Shown piece by piece: positions 5,400 to 50,583 of a DNA stretch of 64,000 nucleotides. This stretch comes from Dehalococcoidia bacterium (GTDB lineage Bacteria > Chloroflexota > Dehalococcoidia > Bin125): positions 1,632,001 to 1,696,000 of the forward strand of contig CAXXSR010000001.1 of the NCBI GenBank assembly GCA_963662615.2. The letters run 5' to 3'. Numbering within the stretch: the stretch's first letter is position 1; each line of letters starts with the position of its first letter. The notes beneath the pieces were generated by a model. The model saw only the letters and a list, made by a program, of their open reading frames with translations, had not been told where the DNA came from and did no database searches. The translations under genes were made by a program, and so were the position numbers.

Positions 5400-6428
5400 A
5401 TGCCCGCGGACGGTTCGTCTGGTGCTCCTGGACCAGCCCCCACAGAGGTGGCGCCCGACCGTCGCTACCAGCCGGTGCCCAAGGAGATGTTGGCCAGCGG
5501 CTCCCCCGCCGACTTGTACGTGAAGCGGGGTCAGGACTTCCAGCTCTACTACTCCCAGCATGCGGGAGACTGGGACGCGACGTTGGAGCGCATGGACCGG
5601 GCGCTGATCGGAACGCTCTGGGTCGCCGACGAAGACTTCTCGCTCGTCCTGGCGCACGTGTCTGAGGGCGTCACGAGAGTCGCGGCCGACATCAGCCGTG
5701 ATCCCGTTGAGCGCGGCCAACTCGTCTCGCAGCACTGCTATCAGGCCCTTGAGGAGGCGTACAAACACCCGTCCAACTTGGCCGCCTTCGGAGTTGCAAA
5801 GGCGACGAGCGAGTCGGCCGTGCAAGCGCTCGTGGATCATCCGGAGATTCTGCCCGGCATGGCTCTGCTCCTAGGCCACGACTACGACACGTTCTCCCAC
5901 TCCGTTTGCGTGGCAGCATTCACCGTTAGTCTCGGATTGCGCGTCGGCATTTCGGCGCCTCAGGAGATATTGGCCGTCGGTCTCGGTGCGATGTTTCACG
6001 ACTTCGGCAAGGTTCGCGTGCCTCTTGCGATCCTGACCAAGCCCGGTCCGCTCACGGGCTGGGAGATGGAAGTCGTTCGCCACCATCCCGAGTGGGGCCA
6101 AGCGCTGCTGGAGGACTTGCAGGCCACCGACGTCGCCATGGAGCCGGTGCTCTATCATCACGAACGCTTCAACGGCACCGGCTACCCAGCGGGGCTGAGG
6201 CGAGAGGAGATTCCCTTCTCCGCCCGCGTGGCAGCCGTCGCCGATGTGTTTCACGCCATTACCTCCCGTCGGCCCTATCGCGGTCCGCTCGACATGTACG
6301 CTGCGGCGGAGCTGATGGTCCGCCGCATGCCCGGACACTTCGACCCTGACGTGTTGCGCGAGTTCATCCTCCTGCTTGGTGGCGGTAAGCGGTCCGCTCC
6401 CGGTCCCTCAGTGGGTGCGAGCGGCTAG
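5400..6428 (+). CDS. HD-GYP domain phosphodiesterase
   Basis: HDFGK, HHERFNGTGYP, RRPYR. Confidence 0.9.
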   Translation: MPADGSSGAPGPAPTEVAPDRRYQPVPKEMLASGSPADLYVKRGQDFQLYYSQHAGDWDATLERMDRALIGTLWVADEDFSLVLAHVSEGVTRVAADISRDPVERGQLVSQHCYQALEEAYKHPSNLAAFGVAKATSESAVQALVDHPEILPGMALLLGHDYDTFSHSVCVAAFTVSLGLRVGISAPQEILAVGLGAMFHDFGKVRVPLAILTKPGPLTGWEMEVVRHHPEWGQALLEDLQATDVAMEPVLYHHERFNGTGYPAGLRREEIPFSARVAAVADVFHAITSRRPYRGPLDMYAAAELMVRRMPGHFDPDVLREFILLLGGGKRSAPGPSVGASG

Positions 6429-10038: not shown

Positions 10039-11586
10039 TCAGGGGAGAGTGCGAGCGGGTGCGGCCGCGGTCACCATTGAACGAACATGGGCATGAACAT
10101 CCGTCGGTGCGGAAGATGGAATCACGCCACGGAGTTCGCTTCCGTCGCGTGAGGCATCGACACGAATCTGGAGCGCGTCGAGCAGCAGATTCATATCGTC
10201 GCCCTCGGCGCTGTTGACCCACTCGCGGATTGCATCACACATCGCTCGGAGCCCCTTTGAGTCAGGCAGTTCAGGAACTGTGGCCATGACCGGCTTTGCT
10301 TGTTCGGCGAGGCGTTCTTGCTCCGCCCGGATCAACACCGTCTCACGTCGCAGATGCGGCTCGTCGATCTCACCCAGCTGGAATAGCCGCAGCAGCCGGC
10401 CGCGCTACGCCTCGAGTTCGCGTAGGCGCTGCTTGGTCCGAGCTGCCTCGTTCCTCGGGGAACCAGCGGCCGCGCTTTGCCTCCGGATCTCCGCCATGAC
10501 GATCTCCGGGCGCGAGAGCACTGCGGTGACCGCGGCGCGCACGGCATCTTCAAGGCGGTCTGCTCGCACGTACCTGGAGTCACATCGATCATGCTTCGGT
10601 CCGGCGAACGCAGCCCGGCACCGATAGTAGCGGTACTTCTGGTGCTGGGTCTGGCCAACCATTGCCCGGCCACACTCGCGGCAGCGCACACGCCCTGACA
10701 GCAGGTAGTCCCGCTTGCGGCGACCACTCCGTAGGCGCTCGGGGTCTCGGAGGCGCAACTGCACTGCGTCGAACATCTCTCTGGGCACTACCTCGGGTGT
10801 CGCTCCGGGCACCTCGATCCAATCAGCCTCGTCTCGAGGCTCTACTCGCCGAGGCCGTAAGCCCTTGCGCGGCGTCACCTTCGTCTTCCGGTACAGCGTG
10901 CGTCCGGTGTACGCCTCGTGCTGCAACAAGTGGAAGACCGTCGCTGGCGACCACTGTCCGCCAGCGAATGTCGGGGTCCCCTCGTCGTTCAGCGCGTTGC
11001 ATAGTCCGATGATCGAGCAGCCGGTCGCGAACTCGGTGAAGAGGCGCAGTACAACCTTCGCCTGTTCTGCCACGACCGTTCGTTTGCCGGTACTCGGGTC
11101 GTAGACATAGCCGTACATCCCGCGCCCGGTTCCCTGTGGCAGACGACCGGAGCGGGCCCGCTCAACTTTGCCACGCATCGTGCGCTCAGCGATCTTCTCG
11201 CGCTCGAACTCCGCTGCGAACGCCTTGACCGATCGCAGCAGCTGCCCCGTGGCTGTGTCCTCGAAGTCCTCGGTGACGAAGTGGAGCGCGACACCATGCT
11301 GCTCCATCTCCTCAACAAGGATCGCGACGTGGGTCTGCTTCCGACTCATGCGGTCGAGGGCGTGGGCCAAGACGACATCGACCTGTCCTGAGGCTGCGAG
11401 TTCCCGCATTCGCTCCATTCCGGGTCGCTCGAGAGTGAACCCACTGGCTGTGTCACGCAGAGCCTCCGCGACGATCCAGCCATCCTTCTGCGCATACTCC
11501 GCGCACGCAGCCTCCTGCGTGTCGAGCGAGGTCCCCTCACGCTCCTGGGCGTCGGTCGAGACCCGCGAGTAGATCACGCAGCGCAT
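10039..11586 (-). pseudogene. large serine recombinase with one in-frame TAG at 10405-10407
   Basis: YSRVST, DRMSR, Zn ribbon CRECG...YYRC; frame continues past the stop (ELEA*RGRLLRLF, paralog ESAQGRLVRLY) into ORF 10039-10338. Confidence 0.85.
10071..10096 (-). repeat. att site at island left boundary: displaced 3' end of dnaN
   Basis: TCACCATTGAACGAACATGGGCATGA encodes MPMFVQW* on the minus strand; 22/26 identical to 52112-52137. Confidence 0.9.
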
Positions 11587-11768
11587 CAGGTTGCCTCCGT
11601 CTCCGACTTTGGGGACCGGCCAGGCGGCCCAATCTCGTCTCCGCTGGTGCGGTACTTCTCGTCGATGGCGTCACGCACGAGCCTCGCCATCGCCGTGTGT
11701 TGCTCGAACGCGAGGCGGCGGAGGGTCTCGTACTCATCATCGCTGATGGTCAGCACTATTCGTCTCAT
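11586..11768 (-). CDS. ribbon-helix-helix (CopG-like) DNA-binding protein
   Basis: RRIVLTISDDEYETLRRLA...MARLVRDAIDE; TGATG overlap with the recombinase start. Confidence 0.7.
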   Translation of the reverse strand: MRRIVLTISDDEYETLRRLAFEQHTAMARLVRDAIDEKYRTSGDEIGPPGRSPKSETEAT

Positions 11769-11823: not shown

Positions 11824-12870
11824 TCACTGCACGGCCAGGCGCGAATGGGCTGTGTCCAGATCAACCGGTAGGGGCCGGGGCGCACGGCGTTGCGCCTGGA
11901 GTCGCTGGTGCGGCCGCAGGAGGCGGTTGAGCGTCCGCATGTCGGCGATGCCGAGCGCGACCGCGACCTCGTGGTCCCGGAGGCCCGCGTCGCTCAGGTA
12001 AGCGGCAGAGGCGCTCCGCAGGGTGCTTCGCGCCGCGTGGGGAAAGCCTGAGGCGGAACATGCGCCGCGCACGATGCGCCGTGCCTGACGATCGGTCAGC
12101 GGCTCGCCGCGCGCGTTCGCGAACACGAACTCGTCAGACGGCTCCACCTTTAGACGATGGCGCGTCATGAGGGCCGCCGCAGGGCCGAAGATCGCGAGGC
12201 GTGTTCGCTGACCACCTCGCGTCGCCGCGACGCTCCACGCCTCGCCTGCGGGCTCCCATCGCAGGGCGCTCCAGCGCAGGCAGCGGATCTCGCCAGCATC
12301 GAGTCCACTGTAGCAATGGACCGTGACGAGCAGCCGATCCCGAAGCGCGCGCGGGCCTCGCTTGCCGGCTCTTGCGGCCTCCACGATGCGCAGCAGGTCG
12401 GACGGCTCGATGGTGGGGCATTGCGCGCGCCTCCGAGACCGATCTCCCGCCAAGATCACGCCGCTCTGGTACCAGTCCGTCCCATCGCGTCTCGGGAGCA
12501 TCTGGTCGAGGTCGTCGATTCGCCGTCGCCCGTCATCGTCACCGAACATCAGCAGGAGCGCCGCATGGATCGCGCCGAGTCGGATCAGCGCGGTCGTCGC
12601 TGAGGGTCGCTTGGCCGGGGAGGTCAGCACCTCAGCCAACGCCGCGGGACGAGCGAGGATCTCGGAGAGCGTGCTGCCCCGTCCCCGCCGTCCGGCCTCG
12701 CGGACAACGGACCGCAACTGCGAGACCTCGCCCCTGACCGCCCCACCCGACCGGTCTCGGCCGTGCTGCTCGCGGTAGCGGACGAGGAACGCCTCGGACT
12801 CGGCATCGAGCCGTCTGGCCATCGGTCGCTCCAGCGGATCGAGGTCAAAGAGCGTGCGCTGGAACATCAT
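11824..12870 (-). CDS. tyrosine-recombinase-fold protein B, predicted catalytically dead
   Basis: SGLDAGEI (R to D), STLR (H lost), LGIADMRTLNRLL (H and Y lost). Confidence 0.75.
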   Translation of the reverse strand: MMFQRTLFDLDPLERPMARRLDAESEAFLVRYREQHGRDRSGGAVRGEVSQLRSVVREAGRRGRGSTLSEILARPAALAEVLTSPAKRPSATTALIRLGAIHAALLLMFGDDDGRRRIDDLDQMLPRRDGTDWYQSGVILAGDRSRRRAQCPTIEPSDLLRIVEAARAGKRGPRALRDRLLVTVHCYSGLDAGEIRCLRWSALRWEPAGEAWSVAATRGGQRTRLAIFGPAAALMTRHRLKVEPSDEFVFANARGEPLTDRQARRIVRGACSASGFPHAARSTLRSASAAYLSDAGLRDHEVAVALGIADMRTLNRLLRPHQRLQAQRRAPRPLPVDLDTAHSRLAVQ

Positions 12871-14068
12871 CCGCTCGCACGGGCTCCGCTCGCGGCTGGG
12901 CGCCGTCCACGCCGAGGCCGCTGAGTTTCGTCCAGACCGCCGCGCGGCTGGGCGTCACATAGGAGGCGTCGAACCGCTCCGTCCCCCGCCAGCCGCCACC
13001 GAGCACGGCCTCCCAGCGGGGCAGCACCGCGGCCGCCCCTGTCGCCCACGCCCGGCGGAAAGCATGGGGCGTGTAGTCGGGTGTCCCTGCGAGGCGGCAC
13101 GCGTGCCGGAGCGCCGCCCGCATCGTCTTGTCCGGCAACTGCGCGCCACGCTCCGTCCGCCAGACTGGCCCAGGTTGCCCGAGGGCGATGCGATCGGGGC
13201 GTCCCGCGGTCCGCATCGTCTCGTTGAACCCGAACACGTACAGCCGCAGCGCCTGGCACGACTCGCGATCCAGTTCCACCTCGTGGCGCTCGCGCCCGTT
13301 CTTCTGGTGCAGGAGGACGCGGACGCGGTCGTCCGGCAGGACGTGGCAGTCCGTCCCATCGAGCGTCCGGAGCGCGTGTCCGCGCGAGGCCGTCCTGGCG
13401 AGCAGTGTCGCGAAGGCGCGATCGCGAAGGCCGAGCCAGCCCTCGGCGCGCCCCATCGCCGTGATGATGGCGCGTAGTTCCTCTGGGCGCGGCGTCGGGC
13501 CCCCGCGTCTTCGCGGCGTCCCTGCGGTGATGCGGTATCCTCCACCTCGCCGTTCGGCAACGCGCCGCAAGGCGTCACGGATGATCTCGTGCGGGTCGCG
13601 CCCGAGGGCCGTCTGGAGTTCGGGGCGCAATATGGTCGCAACCGAGCGGATGGCGGTCCGGCGATGCGCGATCGTGGATTTGGAACAGACACGACCGCTC
13701 GCGCACCGGTCCGAGACCAGCATCCGGCCGAGCAGTTCAGGATTGGCGAACAGGTCCGGAATGCCGACGCGGCGCCCGGTTTCGGCAGAGGCGCAGGCAA
13801 GCATCTCGTTCCTCAGCCAGCGGTACGTCTGCATGCTCCGGGTGCGCAGTCGTCCTTCGGCCCGCTCTTCGTACAGCCGGTCGAGGTCGTCACGCTGCGG
13901 TGGGGCGATGGGCTGGCAGCGGTAGGTGCGGCGGCGAACCTTGGGCGGCCTGAGTCCCTCAAAGTCGGGGAGCGCGAACCGGCGCTGATCCGACCCTGAA
14001 ACCCGTACCGACAGGGGCGGGAGTACATCGCAAAACCGGCCGGACTTTCGGGCGGGGCGGGGAAACAT
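12845..14068 (-). CDS. Cre-like tyrosine recombinase A (start uncertain; ORF open to 14446)
   Basis: RTASRGHAL, HQKNG, TPHAFRR, GGWRGTERFDASY (R-K-H-R-W-Y). Confidence 0.8.
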   Translation of the reverse strand: MFPRPARKSGRFCDVLPPLSVRVSGSDQRRFALPDFEGLRPPKVRRRTYRCQPIAPPQRDDLDRLYEERAEGRLRTRSMQTYRWLRNEMLACASAETGRRVGIPDLFANPELLGRMLVSDRCASGRVCSKSTIAHRRTAIRSVATILRPELQTALGRDPHEIIRDALRRVAERRGGGYRITAGTPRRRGGPTPRPEELRAIITAMGRAEGWLGLRDRAFATLLARTASRGHALRTLDGTDCHVLPDDRVRVLLHQKNGRERHEVELDRESCQALRLYVFGFNETMRTAGRPDRIALGQPGPVWRTERGAQLPDKTMRAALRHACRLAGTPDYTPHAFRRAWATGAAAVLPRWEAVLGGGWRGTERFDASYVTPSRAAVWTKLSGLGVDGAQPRAEPVRADDVPAHAL

Positions 14069-14465
14069 GGTGACACCGGGTTCCGAGGTCGATGGGGTGG
14101 GACTCTCGATCCCCCCTCCCCCATCAGCGGAACCAGTGTCAGAGGAAAATGTCTGATCGCTGCTTAGTAGTAGTCGTATTCGTCGTCGGCGTCGCAGTTC
14201 GTGACCCGGAGTGGTGTGCATCGATCGGAGCCCGCGCGGCAACGGCACTACTGGCCCTCCTCGCCGCACGAGTCGCCGAGCCGTTCGCGAGCCACCGCGA
14301 GCAGGCGACGCCACAACGCCTCCCACGCGAGCGAGCGGTACCGTGCTTTCCCCACGTAGCACTGCACTTCGTTCACGGGGCGTTCGAGTCGGTCGGCAGC
14401 CATGCCCCGATCGAAGCAGAGCTAGGCGAGGCGTTCGTGGGATCACCGTGGAGCTTGGACGTAAT

Positions 14466-16172
14466 TTAGGCGTGTTTTGGGGGGAAGTTCAGCCGGTAGT
14501 GCCGACCCTTCTCGGGAACGACGAGGTTCTTCCAAGCAGCTGAGTCCCTGAACACCTCACTCACGCGCGTGGTGTTCGTGGCAATCCCCTTGAGGGCGTC
14601 GTGGGTGCGCAACGCACGGATGCCCGCCTCGTGTGCGCGGTGCAGATTCTTGACGACCTGCGCTTGTGGCGGCGTCAGCGTGAACTCAGCGTCGCCGAGA
14701 CGCACCGACTCGTAGCTCTCGGTGTGGGTGAACGGGGGAACCGCTGGAGCGTCATCCACCTTGGCAGCCGCCATCACGAGGAGCGAGTGCTGCGGCAGCT
14801 CCCCTCGTGCTAGTGACCCAGCGGCGCGCTCGACCATGCTGGACAGGACCGCCAGTACCGTCTCTGAGTGGCGGACCAGCATATCGAGGTACGCTTCCAG
14901 GTCCTGGGTCTCGCGCCCCTTTCGCAAAGCCGTGATCACGTCCGGATACGCCTCAACGGCTCCCTGATCCGAAAGCGTGCCCAGATCGCGTGCGAAGCGC
15001 ACGTACGAGACCGCGGTCGTTCGCGGATCACCCTCAGGAAGCTCGTCCAGGAACACATCCACGCCGTAACGCTCCGGCGGGTCGTACTCTTCCAATTCGG
15101 TCCCCACAGTAGCGAACCGGCGGTCGATACACTGCGAGCAGTAGCCGCAGTGGGGCCGCGTCCTAGAGCGCCGCTGCGAGTTCACGCATGAGAGCGTCGC
15201 GCCGATCAAGTCCGGCTGCCCAGCGGCAGCGATCTGCTCCACGACCTGGCGCCGCGTGCGGTCCCATAGTGGATTCCTGACCTCCGGCGCCTGACCGAGC
15301 ACCGCGGTGGCCAGCGTATTCAACAGAGCGATGAACCGGGGGTGCGTCGAGCGGGAGGCCCGGCTACCGACGAGCTGTCGGTTTATCGGCAGGTTCAAGC
15401 TAACGACACCGTTGTCCGACAAGAAAACCACGGCGGCGTCCATCCGGTGCGCCGCGGCCAGGGCGAGGGACCCATAGAGGAAGGCCCGTGACCGTCGCGT
15501 GCGTTCGCGCGCCTCGTCTCCGGTGCGATGCACTGCCGCCTCGAGCATCGAGAAGCTATCGCTGCCGAACCGTTGCCGAAGTTCCTCGGCGATCCTGCGG
15601 CGCTCGCCTTCGACCAACCCCCAGCTCCGATGCGAGACGAGCAGAGGCCGCCGCTTCTCAGTGAGTTCAGCGAGAACCGTCGCCAGCGAGTCCATCCCGC
15701 CGGAGAAGAGCACCACGACATCCGTCGAGAGGCCCCTCCTCGGCCCCGCTTCGGGCAGCAGCAATTGCCGATCCTCATCAGCGCCAGCCGGCTCAAAGGC
15801 GAACCGCCACTGATCCTGCGTGAGGAAGCCGACGCACTCCTGGAGCGCTCGGGTGACCGGAGGCGAGGACCAGACGTCCGGCGCATTGACGGGAATGGCC
15901 AGCCGCAGGTCTCGCTCCCAGTGCTCGAGTTTCCAATCCGCGCGGCCGCCGCGAGAGACCGTTTGGTCCGCGGCGTAGACGTAGCTCGCGATGCGGACGA
16001 GGTCGTAGGCGCGCCCATCCAGACGCCCGGCGAACGCGTGCTCGAGGTCCTCGATCCGGAGATTCATGGTCCTGCGTGGGCCACGCGTGTGCAGGGCCAC
16101 AGTCTCGACATCGCCGCCCCGCCACTCGCGCGGGATGGTGGCACCGTCGCAGGGGAAGACGACGGCGCTCAC
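14466..16172 (-). CDS. QueC-like (QatC-like) protein with C-terminal winged-helix-like tail
   Basis: LFSGGMDS PP-loop, RSRAFLY, SRSTHP, SC...HCGYCSQCIDRR; GTGA overlap with upstream gene. Confidence 0.8.
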   Translation of the reverse strand: MSAVVFPCDGATIPREWRGGDVETVALHTRGPRRTMNLRIEDLEHAFAGRLDGRAYDLVRIASYVYAADQTVSRGGRADWKLEHWERDLRLAIPVNAPDVWSSPPVTRALQECVGFLTQDQWRFAFEPAGADEDRQLLLPEAGPRRGLSTDVVVLFSGGMDSLATVLAELTEKRRPLLVSHRSWGLVEGERRRIAEELRQRFGSDSFSMLEAAVHRTGDEARERTRRSRAFLYGSLALAAAHRMDAAVVFLSDNGVVSLNLPINRQLVGSRASRSTHPRFIALLNTLATAVLGQAPEVRNPLWDRTRRQVVEQIAAAGQPDLIGATLSCVNSQRRSRTRPHCGYCSQCIDRRFATVGTELEEYDPPERYGVDVFLDELPEGDPRTTAVSYVRFARDLGTLSDQGAVEAYPDVITALRKGRETQDLEAYLDMLVRHSETVLAVLSSMVERAAGSLARGELPQHSLLVMAAAKVDDAPAVPPFTHTESYESVRLGDAEFTLTPPQAQVVKNLHRAHEAGIRALRTHDALKGIATNTTRVSEVFRDSAAWKNLVVPEKGRHYRLNFPPKHA

Positions 16173-16936
16173 GAGCTTTGCGCCTCCCGCTTCAGCTCGC
16201 TGCGTATCTTCCGGAGCGCGACGGCCGTGAAGCGCTCGGCGTCGGCTTGCGGAATGTCCTGGCCGGTCTCCCAGCCCCGCTTCGAGAGCCATTCGCCAGC
16301 GAAGTCGCGAACGATTCCCGCAGACTGCCGCGCGTGCAGATCGACGGCCGCAAGGACCTCGGTCCCGGCCGCCACGCTGGAGAGAACATTGGGAATCTCC
16401 CGATCGAGCGCAGCCGTCAGCACCCGCGCGAGAAAGTCCCCAAAGAACTTCTGAGACACCTCGCCGAACTGGCGCTCCGTGGAGTGCGCGCGGAACGCAC
16501 GCTCCAGATCCTCAACCGTGCCGCCGAACAGGCTCGTCGCCTGCGTCGCCACCGTCTCCAGCAGGGCGCGGCGGAAGGCCTGGGTGGCGTACTCGCCGGC
16601 GACGGACGTCGAGCCCGCCTGCGCGATGTCGGCCCGCAGGCGGTCCGAGAGTTGCGTGATGAGTGCGACCGAAGAGGTGCCGTCGGCCGCCTCGACGCCG
16701 AGCTGCTCCAGCTCCGGGCCGAGCCGCCCGGCCCGCGAAGCGGACATGAGGCGGACCAGGAGCCAGTACGAGCGCGTAAGAGACGGATCGGTGGCCAGAC
16801 GGCGGAGGTAGTCTTCCGCCGCCACGACGGAGGCAGCGGCGACCGCGGCGGTATCGCCGTGGTCCGCAGTCAGGCGATCGACGACCTGCACCCAGCGATC
16901 CCGCTTTGGCAACCGGCCCAGGCGGTTGTGTCCCAT
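16169..16936 (-). CDS. helical partner of the QueC-like protein (QatB-like position)
   Basis: Begins MGHNRLGRLPK; translationally coupled to the QueC-like gene. Confidence 0.65.
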   Translation of the reverse strand: MGHNRLGRLPKRDRWVQVVDRLTADHGDTAAVAAASVVAAEDYLRRLATDPSLTRSYWLLVRLMSASRAGRLGPELEQLGVEAADGTSSVALITQLSDRLRADIAQAGSTSVAGEYATQAFRRALLETVATQATSLFGGTVEDLERAFRAHSTERQFGEVSQKFFGDFLARVLTAALDREIPNVLSSVAAGTEVLAAVDLHARQSAGIVRDFAGEWLSKRGWETGQDIPQADAERFTAVALRKIRSELKREAQSS

Positions 16937-17618: not shown

Positions 17619-17962
17619 GAGCCTTTCTGGTAGTCGGCCACGATCGCGGCCTTGACGGCATTCACGGGCGAGTCGATCCCGCCCGAGTGCAGCACAGCGA
17701 CGTAGCGTCGCTTCCCTTCATCCGTCTCGTGGGACCAGGCGTAGGCGCGCTTGGCCTTGGGGTGGTCGATGAGGTCGAAGACCTGGACCACACCCTCCCA
17801 GACCGTCTCACCCTCGAACGTTTCCGTGACAGGTACGGCCTCCACCCAGCGGCTCTCGCAGCCGTGGAGGTCGCGGATGGCGTCTCGCAGAGCCTCTACA
17901 TTTGTCTCCGCCAAAGGGCTACTCGCCAGACTTATCGTGGCTCTGGGCCGCCGGGGGCTCAT
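17615..17962 (-). CDS. hypothetical protein (true start probably ~17915)
   Basis: Globular-looking composition (VWEGVVQVFDL...AYAWS); overlaps next gene. Confidence 0.55.
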   Translation of the reverse strand: MSPRRPRATISLASSPLAETNVEALRDAIRDLHGCESRWVEAVPVTETFEGETVWEGVVQVFDLIDHPKAKRAYAWSHETDEGKRRYVAVLHSGGIDSPVNAVKAAIVADYQKGS

Positions 17963-17963
17963 C

Positions 17964-18783
17964 TGACCTGCCCCCGATCGTTGTACCAGTCGTTAAGTTA
18001 GTCCGATCGCCGGGACGAGCGTCAGGGGACGTTCCCGGGGTTGCTGCGTTTCCGGGGCGGGGGGGCGGTAGCCGAGGGCACGGTGGGGGCGGATCTGGTT
18101 GTACTCCCGCCGCCAGCCCTCGATGAGGATCTGGGCTTCCAGCAGGGTGTCGAAGCGCTCGCGATTGAGGCACTCGTCGCGCAGCTTGCCGTTGCACGAT
18201 TCCACATAGCCGTTCTCCCAAGGACTGCCCGGTTCGATGAAGAGGGTCGTGACCCCGACCCGGTGCAGCCAGTCCCGCACCGCGGTGGCGGTGAACTCCG
18301 GGCCGTTGTCGGACCGCAGCAACGTCGGCGGCCCGCGCTCGACGAACAGCTGGGCCAACCGCGCCAGGACGTCGTCGCTGCGCAGTCGGCGGGCGACGTC
18401 GAGACGCAGGCACTCGCGGGTGGTCCTCATCCACGATGGCGAGGATCCGCACCGGGCGCCCATCGGCGGTGCGGTCGAAGACGAAGTCGTAGGACCAGAC
18501 GTGGGACGGCCGCTCGGCCCGCCGCCGCACCAGCGAGCCGGCCGCGAGCCAGAGGCGGCCCCGTTGGGGGTGCTTCCCGGGGACCCGCAAGCCTTCCTGA
18601 CGCCAGCGCCGCTCGACCCGCTTGTGGTTCACCCGCCAGCCCTCCTGGCGCAGCAGGGCCGTGATGCGACGGGAGCCGTAGCGGCCGAAGCGGGTGGCCA
18701 GCGCGACGATGCGCGCGATCAGCGCCGGCGCATCCGGGGACGGCCGGGGCACGTAGCGCTGTGTCGCCCGCGCCTGGCCGGTG
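17964..18783 (-). mobile_element. IS3-family element, 3' part only, frameshifted orfB
   Basis: IR TGACCTGCCCCC at 17964; WSYDF, SDNGPEF, PWENGYVES; cut at 18783 by the next IS. Confidence 0.85.
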
Positions 18784-18812
18784 TGACCTGCCCCCGATTG
18801 TTGTACCAGGGC

Positions 18813-19655
18813 TTAAGTTAGTGCCAGAACCATCCGGTCTGCCAAAGGGGTGGGGTGGGGAGGTCCGACCTCCAGGGTCTCTGGGGCGGGGGGGCGGTAG
18901 CCGAGGGCGCTGTGAGGCCGGACTTGGTTGTACTCCCGGCGCCAGCGATCGACCAGGATCTGCGCTTCCGTGAGCGTGGTGAAGATCTCGGGGTTGAGGC
19001 ACTCGTCGCGCAGCTTGCCGTTGAAGGATTCCACATAGCCGTTCTCCCAGGGGCTGCCGGGCTCGATGAAGAGTGTCGTCACGCCGAGGCGACGCAGCCA
19101 GGAACGCACCGCCGTCGCCGTGAACTCGGGGCCGTTGTCGGAGCGGACGTAGGTGGGCGGGCCCCGCTGCACGAAGAGCGCCGTCAGCCGGGCGAGGACG
19201 TCGTCGGACCGCAGGCGCCGGGCCACGTCAATGCTGAGGCACTCCCGCGTGTACTCGTCGACGATGGTCAGCAGGCGCAGGGGCCGGCCGTCGTGGGTCC
19301 GCTCGCTGACGAAGTCGTAGGACCAGACGTGGTTCGGGCGCTCCGCCCGGCGCCGCGTGCAGGATCCATCGGCCGCCCAAAGCCGCCGCCGGCGCGGGGC
19401 TTTCCGGGGCACCCGCAGCCCTTCCTGCCGCCAGAGCCGCTCCACCCGCTTGTGGTTCACCCGCCAGCCCTCGGCCCGCAGCAGCGCCGTGATGCGCCGG
19501 GAGCCGTAGCGCCCGAAGCGGCGGGCAAGGGCGATGATCCGGGCGATCAGAGCCGGCTCGTCCGCGGGCACCTGCACGGGGTGCCGCTGCGTGCTGCGCG
19601 GCTGGGCGAGGGCCCGGCAGGCCCGACGCTCCGAGACGGCCAGCGCGGTTCGCAC
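18813..19655 (-). CDS. IS3 transposase OrfB (DDE)
   Basis: WSYDF, DEYTREC, SDNGPEF, ESFNGKLRDECLN. Confidence 0.9.
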   Translation of the reverse strand: MRTALAVSERRACRALAQPRSTQRHPVQVPADEPALIARIIALARRFGRYGSRRITALLRAEGWRVNHKRVERLWRQEGLRVPRKAPRRRRLWAADGSCTRRRAERPNHVWSYDFVSERTHDGRPLRLLTIVDEYTRECLSIDVARRLRSDDVLARLTALFVQRGPPTYVRSDNGPEFTATAVRSWLRRLGVTTLFIEPGSPWENGYVESFNGKLRDECLNPEIFTTLTEAQILVDRWRREYNQVRPHSALGYRPPAPETLEVGPPHPTPLADRMVLALT

Positions 19656-19679
19656 GTGCGCAACCGCCTGCCGCCGGGC

Positions 19680-19958
19680 TCAGAAGTTTCCCGACGCCAC
19701 CTCTTTGAGGATGGCGTGGTCCAGCGCCTGATCGGCCACCAGCCGCTTCAGCCGCGCGTTCTCCTGCTCCAGCTCCTTGAACCGCTTCGCCTGATCCAGC
19801 CGCAGGCCGCCGTACTCCCGCCGCCAGCGGTAGTAGGTCTGCTCGGCGACGCCGAGCCGTCGTGCCACTTTGGCCACACTCTCGCCCTGCGCCAGGGCCA
19901 CCTCCGCCTCCCGCAGTTTCCCGATGATCTGCTCTGCCGTGTACCGCTTCCGCGCCAT
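19680..19958 (-). CDS. IS3 transposase OrfA (HTH)
   Basis: MARKRYTAEQII...QTYYRWRREYGG...ENARLKRLVAD. Confidence 0.9.
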   Translation of the reverse strand: MARKRYTAEQIIGKLREAEVALAQGESVAKVARRLGVAEQTYYRWRREYGGLRLDQAKRFKELEQENARLKRLVADQALDHAILKEVASGNF

Positions 19959-20024
19959 GCCGACTCCCTCCTCCCAGCCCGGATCCTCGCATAGGATCTG
20001 GACCGGTTTTGGGGGGGCAGGTCA

Positions 20025-30490: not shown

Positions 30491-30561
30491 GAACACGCGC
30501 CGAGAGCTGCAAGCTCAAACGGTGCCCACGCCACGCGACTTCACGCGGATCGCACGCGACG
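30491..30561 (+). repeat. 71-bp copy of serine recombinase gene segment 51876-51946
   Basis: 68/71 identity by manual alignment. Confidence 0.9.
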
Positions 30562-30744
30562 CCGGTCCAGTACTCTGGGACATCCTTGCTGGGCGTCCCC
30601 CCACTGACCGCTCTCGCGAGAAGTCCCATTCGGCGCTGGTCCCAATGCGCCGGGGTCTCCCCCAACCACTCGACGCCGGAGTTCTTTGTACTCGGAGTAG
30701 GGCTTCCAGCGGCTCGCAGCCGCCTCAGCGTCGCTATCGCTCAT
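30562..30744 (-). pseudogene. hsdS: type I RM HsdS N-terminal remnant
   Basis: WKPYSEYK/(frameshift)SGVEWLGETPAHW...SGGTPSKDVPEYW. Confidence 0.75.
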
Positions 30745-33469: not shown

Positions 33470-33731
33470 AGCGTCGATCACCGGTCTGGATCGCCGTCGC
33501 GGCGGGCACTGACGTGGGCTCTGCGGGAGATCCGAGCGAATCGGTTCAGCCCGGCTTGGAGAGTCAGCGGTATCTGCGCGGAATGCGTAACGGGGCGGGC
33601 GGCGAGACGATGAAATTCGGATGCGGCCCTTATGTGCGCGCGCCGCTGGATGAGGTGACAATCGACCCTTCGACGTGGTTTGCTGATTGTGAGGTCGCAG
33701 AGCAGTACACGCGACCAGCGAGAGGGTGGGG

Positions 33732-36700
33732 ATGACGACAGCGAGCAGGGCACAATCGTTGCCTACGGTCGCTCCAGATGTTGGGCAGCTCGTGCATGTC
33801 CGCTCCCGACGGTGGCTCGTCGAGGAGATTGTTCCGCCCGCGAGCCCCGGCGACTCTTGCCTCGTTCGCCTCGCCTGTGCCGACGACGATGCTCAAGGAC
33901 AGTCCCTGGACGTGTACTGGGACTACGAGCTCGACAGGAGAGTTCTGGAGGAAGAGGGCTGGCAAGACCTGGCCAGCCAAGGGTTCGACGACCCGCGCCA
34001 GTTCGCAGCCTTCCTGCACACGTTGCAGTGGAACTGCGTCACGGCGACAGATCCGAACATCTTCCAGGCGCCCTTCCGGGCTGGCATCAAGATCGACGCC
34101 TACCAGATGGAGCCGCTGCGCAAGGCGCTCCGGCTCCCCCGCGTCAATCTCTTCATCGCGGACGACACGGGCCTTGGAAAGACGATCGAGGCGGGCCTCA
34201 TCGCCCGGGAACTGCTGCTCCGCAAGAAAGTCAAGACAATCGTGGTCGCGGCACCCGCCTCGGTCATCGAGCAATGGAAGGGCGAGATGGAGGATCGCTT
34301 TGGCTTGGTGTTCGAGATTCTGGACCGTGCGTACCTGACGAAGATGCGTCGCGAGCGGGGGTTCGGCGTGAACCCGTGGCGAACCCATAGCCGCTTTTTG
34401 ATCTCCCACAGTCTGTTGATCGACCCGACTTACGCCGACCCAATGCGTGAGTGGCTCGGCCCCCTGCTGCCAGGGAGTCTTTTGATCCTCGACGAAGCTC
34501 ATCACGCGGCACCGTCCAGCGGTGGGCGCTACGGCATCGAGACGAAGTTCACGCGCGCCGTGCGAGACCTCTCCGGCCGCTTCGAGCACCGGCTGTTTCT
34601 GTCCGCCACTCCGCACAACGGCCACTCCAACAGCTTCTCGACGCTCCTGGAGCTACTCGACCCATATCGGTTCACCCGGGGGGTGAAGGTGCGCGGCAAG
34701 CGGGAGCTTGACGATGTCATGGTCCGGCGACTCAAGGACGACATCCGCGCCATCCAAGGTGGCTTCCCCGTACGCGTCGTGCAGCGCGTGGTCATCGATG
34801 GGCTCCCGGAAGATGCGCCAGAGCTCGTCCTGTCCCGCCTTCTTGACGAATATCGGACCGTTCGAGAGGAGCGTCACGCCGCCGCATCGCGGAAAGCGCA
34901 AGCGTCAGCTGGCCTCTTGATTGTTGGGTTGCAGCAGCGGCTGCTGTCCTCCACAGAGGCTTTCGCGCGCAGTCTCAAGGTCCACCGGCAGACGGTGAAG
35001 CGTCATTGGGAGAAAGAGTCGACGACTGCCGTCCCAGAATCCAAGACGGCGGACGAGGACGCCCGCCTCTTTACGATGGCACCGGACGTGGATGACGAGC
35101 GTGGTGTGTGGACCGATAACCAGCTCGACGCAGAGGAGGACGACCAAATCGAGTCGATCACCAGCGCCGCGGAAGCTGGAACTGCACGCGACAAGGCTGC
35201 GGTGGACCTGTGGAACCGGGAGCAGGAACTGCTGGATGAGATGGAAGAGGTCGCGGAGGCGACACGTCACCTGCCCGAGGCGAAGGCTCGGCGCCTCATC
35301 GACTGGATCCGGGAGAACATGTGCCCCGACCTGCCACCGTTCGGGAAGTCGCCAACGGAATCGCGCCCTGCCTGGAACGCGCGGCGGGTCCTGATCTTCA
35401 CAGAGAATCGCGAGGGCACAAAGCGATATCTGCGGACGATCCTGGAACAGGCCATCGAGGGGACCGACCGAGCGGATGAGCGGATCGAGGTCATCGACGG
35501 TCTCACAAGTAGCACCCGACGCAAGGAAATCCAGCGCCGGTTCAACGCGGACCCTGCGAAAGACCCACTACGGATTCTGCTCGCCACGGACGCCGCCCGA
35601 GAGGGGCTGAACTTCCAGGCCCACTGCGCGGACTTGTTCCACTTCGACTTGCCCTGGAATCCCGGACGAATCGAGCAGCGCAACGGCCGGATCGATCGCA
35701 AACTGCAGCGGGCCCCCGAGGTCCGCTGCCACTACTTCGCCTTGCCCCAGCGCGTGGAGGATCGCGTCCTCCGGGTCCTGGTTCGGAAGACTGAGACGAT
35801 CAAGAAGGAACTCGGAAGCCTCTCAAAGGTGATCGACGACGACATTGAGCGCCAGCTTCGGGGCGGGATTCGGCATCGAGACGTGGATCGACTCGCTCGC
35901 GAACTCGAACAAGCGGACCTCGACGAGGAGCGCAAACGAATCACGAATGAGGAGTTGGAATCCGCGAGAGACCGACAAGAGGACCTAAAGCAACAGATCG
36001 AGCGCTGCCAGACGCTTCTGGAACGTTCGCGGGAGTGGGTCGGCTTCGCGCCGGAGCCGTTCCGCGACGCGCTCTCTTGCTCGCTGAAACTGATCGGCGC
36101 CGAGCCGCTAACAGAGAGTCGAGACGACGACGGTAACCTCGTCTGGACGTTCCCCCCGCTCGATCGCCGCGCCGAGACCGACGCGAGCTGGGCGGCGACG
36201 CTTGATACCCTCCGGGCGCCCCGCAAGACGAACGAGAAGCTCGCCGAGTGGCGTCGCGAGGCACCGATTCGCCCGATCGTCTTCCAAGATGCCGGCGTCT
36301 TGAGCGACGACACTGTCCACCTCCACCTCGAGCAGCGTGTTGCACAGCGTCTTCTCGCCCGCTTCCGCTCGCAGGGTTTCATCCACCATGATCTCTCTCG
36401 CGCCTGCCTCGCCCAGACCGCCGACTCCGTCCCCCGGGTCATTCTGCTCGGTCGGCTCTCGCTCTACGGACGCAACGCAGAGCGCCTCCATGAGGAGATC
36501 GTTCCGCTAGCCGCACGTTGGGTGGAGCCATCCCGGCGACAGACTCCGCTCCGAGCGTACGCGCGCGCGGCTGAGACCAGGACTTTGGACCTGCTCGAGG
36601 CTTCTCTCGATCGCGGGGGGTCTGAGCCGAACGAAACGGTTCGGGGCAAGATCCTCGCCTCCGCGGCGCGCGATGTTGAGGAGCTGCGTCCCCAGCTCGA

Positions 36701-37037
36701 GCCCCGCGCGGAGGAGCTGGCTGAGGTTGCGATCGACAGACTTCGTGAGCGAGGTGAGCGTGAGGAGCGCGACCTCCGCGGGATCCTCGAGCGTCACCGG
36801 AAGCGTGTAGCGGAGGAGCTGGAGAAGCAGGAGGATCAACCGCTTCAGCTTCGCCTCGGCTTTGGCGAGGAGGAGAGACGCCAGCGGGAAGCCGACGTGC
36901 GTTCCTGGCGCATTCGGTTGGAGCAGTTCGACCGTGACCTCGACGAGGAGCCGCAACGTGTCCGTGACTTCTACGAGGTCCGCGCCAGGCGGGTGGAGCC
37001 GATCGGGCTCGTCTATCTCTGGCCGGACACGAACTGA
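33732..37037 (+). CDS. drmD: DISARM SNF2-like helicase
   Basis: ADDTGLGKT, DEAHH, SATPHNG, REGLN, EQRNGRIDR; first gene of canonical order. Confidence 0.88.
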   Translation: MTTASRAQSLPTVAPDVGQLVHVRSRRWLVEEIVPPASPGDSCLVRLACADDDAQGQSLDVYWDYELDRRVLEEEGWQDLASQGFDDPRQFAAFLHTLQWNCVTATDPNIFQAPFRAGIKIDAYQMEPLRKALRLPRVNLFIADDTGLGKTIEAGLIARELLLRKKVKTIVVAAPASVIEQWKGEMEDRFGLVFEILDRAYLTKMRRERGFGVNPWRTHSRFLISHSLLIDPTYADPMREWLGPLLPGSLLILDEAHHAAPSSGGRYGIETKFTRAVRDLSGRFEHRLFLSATPHNGHSNSFSTLLELLDPYRFTRGVKVRGKRELDDVMVRRLKDDIRAIQGGFPVRVVQRVVIDGLPEDAPELVLSRLLDEYRTVREERHAAASRKAQASAGLLIVGLQQRLLSSTEAFARSLKVHRQTVKRHWEKESTTAVPESKTADEDARLFTMAPDVDDERGVWTDNQLDAEEDDQIESITSAAEAGTARDKAAVDLWNREQELLDEMEEVAEATRHLPEAKARRLIDWIRENMCPDLPPFGKSPTESRPAWNARRVLIFTENREGTKRYLRTILEQAIEGTDRADERIEVIDGLTSSTRRKEIQRRFNADPAKDPLRILLATDAAREGLNFQAHCADLFHFDLPWNPGRIEQRNGRIDRKLQRAPEVRCHYFALPQRVEDRVLRVLVRKTETIKKELGSLSKVIDDDIERQLRGGIRHRDVDRLARELEQADLDEERKRITNEELESARDRQEDLKQQIERCQTLLERSREWVGFAPEPFRDALSCSLKLIGAEPLTESRDDDGNLVWTFPPLDRRAETDASWAATLDTLRAPRKTNEKLAEWRREAPIRPIVFQDAGVLSDDTVHLHLEQRVAQRLLARFRSQGFIHHDLSRACLAQTADSVPRVILLGRLSLYGRNAERLHEEIVPLAARWVEPSRRQTPLRAYARAAETRTLDLLEASLDRGGSEPNETVRGKILASAARDVEELRPQLEPRAEELAEVAIDRLRERGEREERDLRGILERHRKRVAEELEKQEDQPLQLRLGFGEEERRQREADVRSWRIRLEQFDRDLDEEPQRVRDFYEVRARRVEPIGLVYLWPDTN

Positions 37038-40000
37038 TGGCCACACTCGATCCACAAATCGCCGCGCATCTCGAATGGATTGGCTTTGTGCGGCCGACGG
37101 GTCTCGTCGTCTCCGCGCCTGCTCTCGTGCGGGCCGGTGCCATCCTGGACCGAAACGATGCGGAGGGTCAGCGCTTCCTCCGGGAGAACGTCGAGCAGCG
37201 AGAGTTCGACCCGGCGGAAGGCTCCACTGCGTGGGCCCCGAGCTTCCACGCGTTCGCTTCCACAGTGCTGGGTTGGAACTTCTCTCCTACAGGATACGCC
37301 GGGAGCGAAGAAAGCCCGATCCCCGCCGACCTTGAGGTGCCGCTTCCCGACTATGGGACGACGCTTCGACCTGATTTCGTGGTCCGGGAGCTCGACGCAG
37401 CTGCGGGCGACGTGCCCTGGCAGCTCCTGGTCCGTGTGCTTGAGGCCGGCCAGGACTTCGATACGACCATTCGCGGGGATGGGAACCTCGAGGCCTCGGC
37501 TCACGGGCGCATGGAGCGGCTCTTGCGGCGAACCGGCGTTCCCGCTGGGCTCCTCTTCAATGGCCGGGCGCTTCGCCTGGTTTCCGCGCCCCGCGGTGAA
37601 AGCTCGGGTTGGATCGACTTCTGCGTCGACGACATGGTCCAGACCGCTGGGCGGCCTATTTGCACCGCACTGCGATTGCTCCTGGGGCAGACGCGCCTCC
37701 TAAGTCTCCCCAGGGCACAGCGCCTGACCGCCCTCCTTGAGGACAGCCGCAAGTTTCAGAACGAGGTCAGTGAGCGCCTGGCCGAACAGGTCCTGCACGG
37801 CCTCTATGACCTGCTGCGTGGATTCCAAGCAGCACATGACGCCTCCGGCGGCGAGTTGCTACGGGAACCGCTGCGCGAGAATCCTGACGAGGTCTACCGC
37901 GCCTTGCTGACGGTGACCCTCCGGCTCGTCTTCCTGCTCTACGCCGAAGAGCGCGACATGCTCCCAGGGGATGAAGCCTTTCAGAAGTACTATTCGCTCG
38001 CGGGGCTCCACGCTCGGCTCCGAGAAGATGCCGCGCTCTTCCCCGACACAATGGAGCAGCGGTACGGCGCCTGGCCGCAACTCCTCGTTCTCTTCCGAAT
38101 GGTCTTCGACGGGGCCGAGAGCGGGGAGATGCGCTTGCCGCAACGACACGGTGTGCTCTTTGATCCGGACCGCTTCCCCTTCCTCGAGGGGCGGCCCGCG
38201 GCGGACTCGCGGCAAATCGACGGGCGGATCGAACCTCCTCTCGTGCCAGACGGCACGATCTATCGAGTTCTCGAGAACCTGCTTGTGCTCGACGGTGAGC
38301 GCATCTCCTACCGCGCTCTTGACGTGGAACAGATCGGCTCCGTCTACGAGACGATGATGGGCTTCCGCCTGGAGCAAGCGACCGGCCGCTCCGTGGCGAT
38401 CAAGGCGTCGAAGAGGCATGGCGCGCCGACGACCATCAATCTCGAAACGCTCCTCGCGGAGTCACCGGCCGCGCGGGAGAAGTGGGTGAAGGATCAAGCC
38501 GATCGGGCGTTGACGGACAAGGTCAACAAAGCGGTCAAGGACGCCGTGACCCTCGATGACCTGCATGCGGCGCTCGATTCCGTGGTGGATAGGCGCGCCA
38601 CCCCGGACCTCATACCCGTGGGGGCGATGGCCTTACAACCGAGCGAGGAACGACGTAGGTCCGGTTCCCACTACACTCCCCGGACGCTGACTGAGCCGAT
38701 CATCCGCACGACCTTGGAGCCCATCCTCAAGAGACTGCGAGGCGAGGAGGATCGGCCACCGATGCCGGCGCAGATCCTAGAACTCAAGGTCTGCGACCCG
38801 GCAATGGGCTCAGGCGCATTCCTCGTCGAGGCTTGCCGCCACCTCGGAGATGCCTTGATCGAGGCCTGGCGTTTCCACGACCAGTTGCCCAGCATCCCAC
38901 CAGACGAAGATGAAGTGGTCCTGGCGCGCAGGCTGATCGCGCAGCGTTGCCTCTACGGGGTGGACAAGAATCCTGTCGCAGTTGACCTTGCCAAGATGTC
39001 GCTCTGGCTCGTCACGCTTGCCCGCGACCATCCCTTGACCTTCCTGGATCACGCGCTGCGGCACGGCGACTCACTCGTTGGGCTTTCGCGCAAGCAGATC
39101 GAAGCCTTTCACTGGGATGGGGACGCGCCCCGCTTTCAGGCGGGGCTTGAGATCATGCAGGTTCGCGAACATGTGGCGAGAGTCACGAATCTGCGCCGGC
39201 GAATCCGTGAGGCGGACGAGAGCGTCCAGGACTGGCAACTGCGCGACCTCTGGAACGAGGCGCAGATGGAGCTCGGGAATATCCGCTTGTTCGGCGACCT
39301 GGTGCTTGCGGCCTTTTTCGAGGAAGAGAAGCCCAAGGAGCGAGAACGGAAGCGAAACGAGTACGCCACGTCCGTTCTCGCCGGCGAGACGGAGGGCAAC
39401 CGCGAACGGCTCGATGGCTGGAGGGACGCGACCCTGCCGCTCGTTCCCTTCCATTGGGAGATCGAGTTCCCGGAAGTCTTCGAAAGACGCGCGCCTGGGT
39501 TTGATGTCTTCGTCGGGAACCCGCCGTTCGCGGGCAAGAACAATCTCGCGAGTGCGAATCTCGCTGGATACGCTGATTGGCTCAGGCAGTCGCATGAAGG
39601 GAGCCACGGAAATGCTGATCTCGTGGCCCACTTCTTCCGTCGCGCCTTTGATCTCCTGAGGGAGGGCGGGGCCTTCGGCCTGATCGCCACGAACACCATC
39701 GGACAGGGCGATACGCGCTCGACAGGGCTCCGCTGGATCTGCGAGCACGGTGGCGATCTTTTCGCCGCGCGGAAGCGCCTCATCTGGCCCGGTCTCGCTG
39801 CTGTGGTGGTGAGCGTAATTCACGGGACCAAGGGACGCTTTTTCGAGCAGCGATGGTTGGACGATCGGCCAGTGGAGATCATCACCGCATTCCTCGCTGA
39901 TCGAGGTCCACACAGTGATCCCAGCAGCCTTTCTGCGAACGCCAGCCTAGCCTTCGTCGGTAATTATGTACTTGGAGACGGGTTCATCTTCGACGATTCT

Positions 40001-46161: not shown

Positions 46162-46940
46162 CCGCGGCCCTCTTCGGTCTCCCGGCGCATCGGCGGAGGC
46201 GGCTTGTGGAAGCCCTTCAGTCGGGTCAGCTCTCTACGCCTTATTCCCCCACTTCGCTGCGATCAGTCCTCGGGCTGCGCGAGGGGGGCGAGGCCGTGCT
46301 CGATGCCCTGGGGGAGTTGGAAGGGATGAGCATCACTGGACGGGCCGCGGCGGCCTGGATTCGCGCCGTTGATGAGGCAGTCGATCGGCTGCCGCGGCCG
46401 GATCTCGTCTGGTCAGGCCCGGAGGTACTCGGGCTGCACGCCCGCGACACGCGGCGCGTGTACGAGGAGCTTCTGGGTGCGGCGGAGGACTCGATCTGGG
46501 CGTGCAGTTACGCCTACTTCGATGGTCGGCGCGCCTTCGAGGCGCTGGCGCGCCGGATGGACGAGAAGCCCGAGTTACGTGTGACGCTACTGCTCAACAT
46601 TCAGCGCCGACGCGGGGACACGACGACGGCGGAGCAGCTGGTGCGGAAATTCGCGGATCGCTTCTGGGGCACGGATTGGCCCGGCTCGTCCCGGCCGAGG
46701 GTCTTCTACGACCCGCGCTCGCTTGAGCCCGATGGTCCCGCTGGGGTCTTGCACGCGAAGGCCGTGGTAGCGGACGACAGGGCGGTCTTCGTGACATCCG
46801 CCAACCTCACCGAAGCGGCGCTCGACAGAAACATTGAGATCGGTCTGCTGGTTCGCGATCCGGCGATCGCCGCTACCGTCTCGACGCACTTCCGCACACT
46901 GGTCGAACAACGCTTGCTGCTCCAGTTGCCTGGGGACTAA
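46158..46940 (+). CDS. drmC: DISARM phospholipase D-like nuclease
   Basis: LHAKAVVAD (HKD), SANLT, NIEIG. Confidence 0.88.
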   Translation: MTAALFGLPAHRRRRLVEALQSGQLSTPYSPTSLRSVLGLREGGEAVLDALGELEGMSITGRAAAAWIRAVDEAVDRLPRPDLVWSGPEVLGLHARDTRRVYEELLGAAEDSIWACSYAYFDGRRAFEALARRMDEKPELRVTLLLNIQRRRGDTTTAEQLVRKFADRFWGTDWPGSSRPRVFYDPRSLEPDGPAGVLHAKAVVADDRAVFVTSANLTEAALDRNIEIGLLVRDPAIAATVSTHFRTLVEQRLLLQLPGD

Positions 46941-50341: not shown

Positions 50342-50578
50342 ATGGATGTGACGCTCAATGGGAAGCGCTACTCGATGACGAAAGCGGATGTGGAGCGGGT
50401 CGTCGACGAGGCTCCGGACTCGCCGCGACGATACGTCGTGAAAGTCAAACGAAAGCGCTACCCGATCAAACAGGCCGCAAGTGCGGGCCTCGGTGTGCCG
50501 CCCGTCGCGTTCACTTCCCAGCAGGCGTACCAATGGCTCTCGCGACTCGACTTCGACGTGATCGATCTGAAGGGCTGA
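50342..50578 (+). CDS. small basic putative DNA-binding protein (resembles SCO5918 family)
   Basis: YPIKQ...FTSQQA...LSRLDF; TTGAGG-17-GATAAT promoter-like sequence and purine-rich RBS upstream. Confidence 0.6.
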   Translation: MDVTLNGKRYSMTKADVERVVDEAPDSPRRYVVKVKRKRYPIKQAASAGLGVPPVAFTSQQAYQWLSRLDFDVIDLKG

Positions 50579-50583
50579 CGACC

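Follow-up and report, generated by a model that had tools for sequence, protein, structure and literature searches.

A tyrosine recombinase and its non-catalytic paralogue form a two-gene cassette on mobile DNA of sponge-associated Dehalococcoidia

The stretch of DNA analysed here (the window) is 64,000 nucleotides long and comes from a Dehalococcoidia bacterium (assembly GCA_963662615.2, contig CAXXSR010000001.1, positions 1,632,001 to 1,696,000). It contains two copies of a two-gene cassette in which a tyrosine recombinase gene (A) is followed, with overlap, by a gene for a paralogous protein that lacks the catalytic nucleophile (B). The first copy, module 1, consists of A1 and B1, and the second, module 2, of A2 and B2. 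These copies are diverged, with 39% identity between A1 and A2 and 36% between B1 and B2. A third pair, A3-B3, was found elsewhere on the same chromosome (locus L004), and B3 was 70% identical to B1. The overlaps between A and B in the three copies were 26, 23, and 4 nucleotides: the B1 ATG is 26 nucleotides ahead of the A1 stop, and A2 and B2 share an ATGA overlap. The start chosen for A1 is the ATG that is also present in its paralogue A3, and the frame is open back to 14446. The start of A2 is uncertain, being either an in-frame TTG at 48086 or a GTG at 48092, and its open frame can be followed upstream, without a shift, into a truncated IS3 transposase (47408-47971). Coordinates of the window features are collected in Table 1.

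The Pfam family Phage_integrase (PF00589, cut-off 27.1 bits) was the only family match of B. Three of the four window proteins scored above the cut-off: A1 (E 3.7e-9, 37.0 bits), A2 (E 2.8e-6, 27.6 bits), and B1 (E 9.8e-14, 51.9 bits). B2 fell just below it (E 1.9e-5, 25.0 bits). Scores against the NCBIfam XerC and XerD models were far under the cut-offs of those models.

By its residues, A is a catalytically complete tyrosine recombinase. A1 has the full catalytic set of R229, K256, H335-x-x-R338, W360 in a GGW motif, and Y370. In an alignment of 30 A sequences, R229, K256, and W360 were invariant, and H335, R338, and Y370 were each kept in at least 90%. The same R-K-H-R-W-Y pattern was present in the A genes of all 14 loci at which it was read directly, which bears out the statement in a preliminary description of this DNA that both A proteins retain the set with GGW. 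A profile of the family aligned these residues to Arg-I and HxxR of the solved XerD structure (E 2.1e-6), and in profile comparison A was closer by sequence to XerD and XerA than to Cre.

B, by the same kind of evidence, is a family without the tyrosine nucleophile and the histidines. B was mapped onto A by profile-profile alignment, including the linker region (hhalign probability 99.1), and by profile alignment to the solved structures of XerA and XerD (E 3.7e-13 to 9.5e-8), and residues were counted in an alignment of 78 B sequences. Single A1 and B1 sequences searched with phmmer against solved structures gave nothing useful, so profiles were needed. At the nucleophile position B1 has leucine (Leu317/318), as does B2; leucine was found there in 65 of the 78 sequences and tyrosine in one, and none of the 15 B genes read directly from loci had a tyrosine. 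The His-II position is S282 in B1, with histidine in four of the 78, and the His/Trp-III position is I308 in B1 and I, L, V, R, or Y in the family, where histidine and tryptophan are absent. The arginines were less uniform. At Arg-I there is D191 in B1 and an arginine in B2 (R in 35 of 78), and at Arg-II there is R285 in B1 and a glutamine in B2 (R in 36 of 78); these two positions and that of the lysine vary freely across the family, B1 and B2 included. The preliminary description had reported that both B proteins are full-length frames overlapping the end of A, without the catalytic tyrosine or an intact HxxR. This was found to be the case, the RTLNRLL and RSVDRLL motifs that it named were present, and the profile alignments with A, XerA, and XerD placed a leucine at the tyrosine position.

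Conservation in B is concentrated elsewhere. B retains an N-terminal core-binding domain, a catalytic-domain fold, a Gly/Arg-rich linker, and many conserved arginines. Its best-conserved parts are a helix with the sequence SQLRS in the N-terminal domain, a W...G...RRR linker in common with A, R218, and the C-terminal helix, for which the very conserved pattern is R-T/S-V-D-R-L-L-x-x-H-x-x-L-x-A-Q-R. Single positions that are well kept include His321 (66/78), Thr/Ser313 (66/78), and Arg218 (71/78). An AlphaFold2 model of B1 was confident over the whole protein (predicted local distance difference test score 91.7, predicted template modelling score 0.81), and its best Foldseek matches were XerA, XerH, XerD, Cre, and IntI, each with a probability of 1.0. 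Matches in the ESM Atlas were to generic integrase clusters only. Judged from these alignments and models, A and B are paralogues, and B is an ancient paralogue of A.

A search of 1.84 billion cluster representatives gave 281 relatives of B at E ≤ 1e-3; at the stricter thresholds of 1e-10 and 1e-30, 98 and 33 remained. Length and motifs were kept at 25-40% identity across the family, and 59 of the 98 representatives at E ≤ 1e-10 were at least 300 amino acids long. The ratio of nonsynonymous to synonymous substitution rates (dN/dS; Nei-Gojobori, single pairwise estimates) was 0.20 for B1 against B3 and 0.21 for A1 against A3, which indicates purifying selection. Because the loss of the tyrosine and histidines is common to the whole B family, it is a family trait and not decay. 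The earlier suggestion of selection rather than decay therefore stands: the loss is family-wide, dN/dS is low, the predicted fold is complete, and most of the 98 representatives are at least 300 amino acids long.

Additional loci came from species-representative genomes (L035, L036), metagenome contigs (L043-L048), and 401 genomes of the class, which were searched with a profile (L060-L067). Full-length B was found in eight of the 401 class genomes, among them the window genome with its three copies. Across a phylum sample of 401 genomes it was found in one, again the window genome, and the other matches were to the generic catalytic domain only; four genomes in this count are unpublished, and no conclusion depends on them. 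Viral contigs were scanned as well, and no relative was present among them. A was encoded immediately upstream of B in 15 of the 16 loci with a visible upstream side, a count that leaves out the degenerate L067 and L045, which starts inside B; the exception was L066, in which B is truncated at its N-terminus. The pairwise identities of A and of B also co-varied (r 0.88 over 55 non-independent pairs). Together, synteny and co-variation indicate that A-B is one evolutionary unit, standing beside interchangeable serine recombinase units. Islands and plasmid-like contigs were the setting of the cassette. A convergent phage RepO-like gene followed A-B in two metagenome contigs (L044, 9278-10120, minus strand; L045, 1221-3309, minus strand), with a ParA gene as well in L045, and the cassette therefore also occurs on plasmid- or phage-like replicons.

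Recent movement of the pair was evident in a comparison of the window genome, from family f1 in the Genome Taxonomy Database (GTDB), with a genome from family f125 (G588, judged to be the same record as L035). Besides one fragment of an insertion sequence (IS), blastn found a single segment in common, 2573 bp long and 98.1% identical (5686-8256 of L004), with only A3-B3 inside it and unrelated DNA on both sides. Identity of 98% across two GTDB families with unrelated flanks indicates that the A-B pair moved recently by itself. The unit has a sharp right end, and its left end falls within an imperfect palindrome. In Logan contigs from two metagenome runs (contigs only), the depth of the unit was three to seven times the summed depth of its flanks, and both G588-type flanks and other flanks were joined to its ends, the other flanks at 8256. 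Four other records that contain the stretch carry the label sponge metagenome. A-B is a two-gene recombinase cassette on mobile DNA of sponge-associated Chloroflexota of the class Dehalococcoidia. Relatives yielded no empty site, their DNA being too diverged, and the gene in the left flank had matches at the level of paralogues only.

Upstream of A is a candidate site for the recombinase. About 80 nucleotides ahead of the A1 ATG lies an ACT repeat with the motif ACTAA-N5-GATCAGACATTT, which may be a recombination site or an operator. Module 1 and the A3-B3 unit are homologous in DNA sequence over window positions 11906-14171, and this homology starts exactly at the ACT repeat with a sharp break. 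The counterpart in module 2 is ACTAA-N5-GATCGGCAC, and a related motif is upstream of A in L036 and L047. Module 2 and L047 carry two or three direct repeats of 16-20 nucleotides that contain GATC. The number of ACT copies differed between copies of the cassette, being about 1, 2, 3, and 8, and a 3-nucleotide ACT deletion at L004 position 5887 was polymorphic in contigs and seen in two runs. Such variation fits a crossover or slippage site, as far as sequence comparison can indicate. A search for a second copy of the upstream motif, as a partner site, found none. An 18-nucleotide resemblance to the motif at the right end of the mobile unit was attributed to chance, since it needs an indel and matches with four mismatches were equally frequent elsewhere. 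One contig joins L004 position 5678 to 5887 and so skips the 208 bp between the left end of the unit and the ACT motif; with 25 nucleotides on its shorter side, this is a weak observation.

These data are best accounted for, with a probability that we put at roughly 0.55, by a two-subunit tyrosine recombinase in which A is catalytic and B is a non-catalytic partner for DNA binding and synapsis. This reading follows from the pattern of residues, from the overlap of the genes, and from their synteny and co-variation, as well as from the GInt and SE elements discussed below and the behavior of XerC and XerD. The latter are two paralogous recombinases that occupy non-equivalent half-sites of one core site (dif), and in some Xer pathways one partner alone catalyzes exchange while the junction is processed otherwise. 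By analogy, A and B would be made together from their overlapping genes and would assemble on a site with non-equivalent half-sites, possibly the ACT-repeat/GATC motif upstream of A. B would supply DNA binding and, through its C-terminus, a contact by which A is positioned or activated. Cutting would be confined to the strands bound by A, so that one strand pair would be exchanged, and the resulting Holliday junction might be completed by replication or by host enzymes. Alternatively, B could be purely a synapsis subunit. The heteromer with exchange of a single strand pair had been raised in the preliminary description, and it is plausible from the sequence comparisons, as it fits the overlapping genes, the strict synteny, and the co-variation. 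The cassette is able to move alone, as seen from the 2.57-kb unit, and its most frequent place is just upstream of a small gene and a serine recombinase at the edge of a larger island.

Several points weigh against the two-subunit reading. The upstream motif was recognized in six of ten upstream regions, and not in L043, L044, L046, or L048. Direct or inverted repeats that could form a pair of recombination sites were searched for at the ends of the mobile unit and none were found, and neither a circular junction nor a clean empty site was present in the metagenome contigs examined. The frequency with which a serine recombinase follows B (nine of 13 loci) stays unexplained by the model. The retention of Arg-I and Arg-II in about half of the B sequences, and of His321 in most, indicates that the B pocket has not simply eroded and that some other activity of B is possible. 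Finally, binding between A and B, and DNA binding by either of them, is something that we infer. A complex of A1 and B1 predicted with alignment input scored 0.62-0.68, but one unrelated control scored 0.63, and the score is given no weight in either direction.

Some of the same features would also suit a B protein that acts outside the strand-exchange tetramer, as a stand-alone DNA-binding regulator or architectural protein derived from a recombinase, which might repress the promoters of A and of neighboring genes or bind accessory sites. The GATC direct repeats upstream of A in module 2 and L047 resemble operator or accessory sites more than a core site, B retains its core-binding domain and many conserved arginines, and an AT-rich promoter lies directly downstream of B1. 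However, the parts of B that are most conserved are the full two-domain clamp and the C-terminal helix, and in Cre and XerCD the subunits touch one another through this helix. A stoichiometric partner would also account better than a regulator for the strict overlap of the genes and for their co-variation. This explanation is therefore considered unlikely, although it is the one to be taken most seriously after the two-subunit recombinase.

The serine recombinases beside the cassette were also considered as possible partners of B. A serine recombinase in the same orientation followed B in nine of the 13 loci with enough downstream sequence (modules 1 and 2, L043, L046, L062, L063, L064, L065, and L066) and did not in the A3-B3 unit (counted once), L044, L045, and L061; contig ends excluded L036, L047, and L048 from this count. 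The gene after B varied between loci and belonged to the serine recombinase unit, in which a small gene was always present between B and the recombinase and differed from locus to locus. In module 1 it encodes a 60-amino-acid ribbon-helix-helix protein that has a homologue in the corresponding position of L062, and upstream of this gene there is an AT-rich palindromic region. In module 2 it encodes a protein of no known family. L043 and L046 have an excisionase-type helix-turn-helix protein at this place, and L066 has a toxin-antitoxin pair. L063 and L065 have a conserved zinc-ribbon-like protein of about 80 amino acids with a CxCxC...H motif, which may be an undescribed directionality factor of their serine recombinases.

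The preliminary description had offered, as an alternative, that B acts as a directionality or architectural factor for the serine integrase, and one could extend this to A and B together as a targeting subunit. The frequent same-orientation pairing, which includes both window modules, is what speaks for it. A directionality factor would be expected to be constantly paired with its recombinase and to co-evolve with it, but the pairing was absent from four of the 13 loci and from the 2.57-kb unit that moved alone, whereas B and A went together in 15 of 16. The serine recombinases are of unrelated lineages; those of L043 and L046 share just 26-32% identity with each other and with the rest, as against 36-45% for the A-B pairs adjoining them. 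Identities of the serine recombinases did not co-vary with those of A (r -0.36) or B (r 0.00) over 15 non-independent pairs. In addition, they have small genes of their own (ribbon-helix-helix, excisionase-type, or zinc-ribbon) in the usual place of a directionality factor. The unrelated lineages, the lack of co-variation, and the presence of these small DNA-binding genes make such a role for B improbable.

A catalytic role for B through other residues is less probable still. It would make B a nickase, or a phosphodiesterase acting on the A-DNA intermediate, that uses His321, one helical turn past the tyrosine position, or Thr/Ser313. The strong conservation of these two positions and of Arg218, and the presence of Arg-I and Arg-II in roughly half of the family, are in keeping with this, but free variation at Arg-I, Arg-II, and the lysine position would not be expected in a working phosphoryl-transfer pocket, and we know of no tyrosine recombinase fold with a histidine or threonine nucleophile. 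That B is a decaying, functionless duplicate is scarcely credible, since the damaged copies (L066, truncated and without A; L067, degenerate; P0007, interrupted by an IS end) stand against a dN/dS of 0.20, conservation of length and motifs at 25-40% identity, and a confident full-length fold.

In sequence and fold, A and B matched XerA, XerD, and XerH best. The difference is that both proteins of a XerC/XerD resolution pair are catalytically complete and encoded by single-copy chromosomal housekeeping genes, whereas B is permanently without the catalytic set and the cassette is rare (eight of 401 class genomes), multi-copy, and mobile. In Cre, a tryptophan replaces the third histidine, and A is similar in having an invariant GGW where most members of the family have LGH. 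Cre, unlike the cassette, works as a homotetramer and has no inactive partner. Elements of the RIT (recombinase in trio) type and Tn554, with TnpA, TnpB, and TnpC, are described as compact mobile units in which adjacent, overlapping tyrosine recombinase genes encode the sole enzymes (PMC10214605). The cassette differs from both in that every recombinase of these elements keeps its catalytic tyrosine and no serine recombinase is involved.

The closest precedents of B are GinC of the GInt elements and Tfp of the integrative elements that circularize in a strand-biased manner (SEs), which are reported to be proteins with a tyrosine recombinase fold but without the catalytic residues, encoded in the recombination operons of these elements (PMC10214605, PMC5385486). 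GInt elements, as described from Gamma- and Betaproteobacteria, encode two active recombinases, GinC, and a small GinD; recombination depended on all four gin genes, and the cargo was diverse (PMC5385486, Bardaji et al. 2017). SEs are described from Gammaproteobacteria with four core genes, intA, tfp, intB, and srap, of which two encode active recombinases; Tfp lacks the RHRY residues, is longer than 550 amino acids, and has the fold only in its center (PMC9345347, PMC10214605). They are reported to copy out one specific strand, leaving no empty site (PMC9345347, PMC10214605), and one-strand chemistry of this kind would be expected from a complex that is half inactive. Like these elements, the cassette has a B gene that overlaps A, is on islands or plasmid-like contigs, and has been recently transferred. 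It differs in having one active protein (A) and one inactive protein instead of two active recombinases, no small gene of the GinD or Srap type inside it, a frequent adjoining serine recombinase, and a Chloroflexota host. B is likened to GinC and Tfp here by description. No account of an inactive tyrosine recombinase that is paired with a serine recombinase, or of a cassette with one active and one inactive member in Dehalococcoidia or Chloroflexota, came up in literature searches; these covered the GInt and SE papers without their supplements, which might list hosts beyond Proteobacteria.

Heteromeric site-specific recombinases with one live and one inactive subunit are barely characterized: GinC and Tfp are needed for recombination and their mode of action is not understood. 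Of the systems of this kind seen to date, the cassette is the simplest, with one active and one inactive subunit encoded in 2.3 kb. It could serve as a tractable model of how a non-catalytic paralogue controls strand choice, of stopping at the Holliday junction, and of a route to copy-out or strand-biased mobility, and a well-defined asymmetric recombinase could be of use as a directional tool for genome engineering. In addition, the cassette is a marker for a family of mobile elements of sponge-associated Chloroflexota; these carry defense systems, and none of the literature searches turned up a description of them. The repeated position of the cassette beside serine recombinases of unrelated lineages suggests that island ends with several recombinases are assembled in a modular way. 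On a more speculative level, the A-B pair may be a minimal mobile element of about 2.6 kb, a tyrosine recombinase transposon with an obligate live/inactive heteromer as its transposase, that exchanges a single strand pair at the ACT-repeat crossover, is copied out in the manner of SEs, settles preferentially at island ends carrying serine recombinases, and reshuffles the QatC-like and DISARM cargo between islands; taken as a whole, this scheme is doubtful, but deserves mention.

Table 1. Features of the window, with positions counted from its first nucleotide
Feature	Position	Strand	Description
LSR1	10039-11586	-	Large serine recombinase; in-frame TAG at 10405-10407 (Gln in LSR2), frame continues past the stop to 10039
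Small gene between B1 and LSR1	11586-11768	-	Ribbon-helix-helix, 60 amino acids; stop overlaps LSR1 start
B1	11824-12870	-	A paralogue without nucleophile, two-domain tyrosine recombinase fold, module 1; 348 amino acids
A1	12845-14068	-	Tyrosine recombinase, module 1; 407 amino acids counted from ATG
ACT repeat and motif	14147-14174	-	Candidate recombination or operator site, module 1
QatC-like gene	14466-16292	-	PP-loop protein; PADLOC QatC, E 2e-58; directly upstream of A1
Protein X gene	16169-16936	-	255 amino acids, no family; beside QatC-like gene
Class 1 DISARM	33726-46940	+	Complete; very strong PADLOC matches
drmD	33726-37037	+	DISARM gene
drmMI	37037-40972	+	DISARM gene
drmA	40973-44371	+	DISARM gene
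drmB	44368-46161	+	DISARM gene
drmC	45963-46940	+	DISARM gene
Module 2 motif	48008-48062	+	Counterpart of module 1 motif; two direct 16-nucleotide repeats (48013-48028, 48047-48062); 37 nucleotides past the end of an IS3 fragment
A2	about 48086-49255	+	Tyrosine recombinase, module 2, diverged copy; R-K-H-R-W-Y
B2	49252-50277	+	Second non-catalytic copy, module 2
Small gene between B2 and LSR2	50342-50578	+	78 amino acids
LSR2	50533-52137	+	Intact large serine recombinase; probable start ATG 50585

Modules 1 and 2 flank a defense island of about 42 kb, with module 1 reading toward its left edge and module 2 toward its right edge. The single in-frame TAG in LSR1, after which the frame continues, suggests that this gene was recently inactivated, or truncated before the coiled-coil. 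On the other side, the frames of LSR2 and dnaN converge and overlap by 26 nucleotides (52112-52137). Two related genomes (G404 and G408) share the hemL-dnaN region and nothing beyond the dnaN stop, which places the boundary of the island at the 3' end of dnaN. Searches for tRNA genes and Rfam families found none in the window or in L004.

The pair formed by the QatC-like gene and the gene for protein X also precedes A in L043, L044, and L062, and the A proteins of these four loci were 38-45% identical. No QatA or QatD was found near the QatC-like gene. The pair may be a two-gene defense or modification cassette that travels with A-B.

A 95-nucleotide direct repeat, 86% identical, was found at 30491-30585 and 51876-51970, the former being a piece of the 3' coding region of LSR2 located 21.4 kb upstream. 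There was no other recombinase homology around 30491-30585, and the repeat could be the scar of an old attachment site or the remnant of a third element. Copies of the IS3 family cluster near the cassettes: two are in tandem at 17919-20024 (minus strand), 3.5 kb from A1, and a truncated one is at 47012-47971 (plus strand). The truncated copy, which ends 37 nucleotides from the module 2 motif, is fused in frame to the A2 open reading frame. Insertion sequences were met beside the cassette in other assemblies as well. In one (P0181) the C-terminus of a transposase is likewise fused upstream of the conserved motif, and in a third (P0007) an IS end interrupts the B gene.

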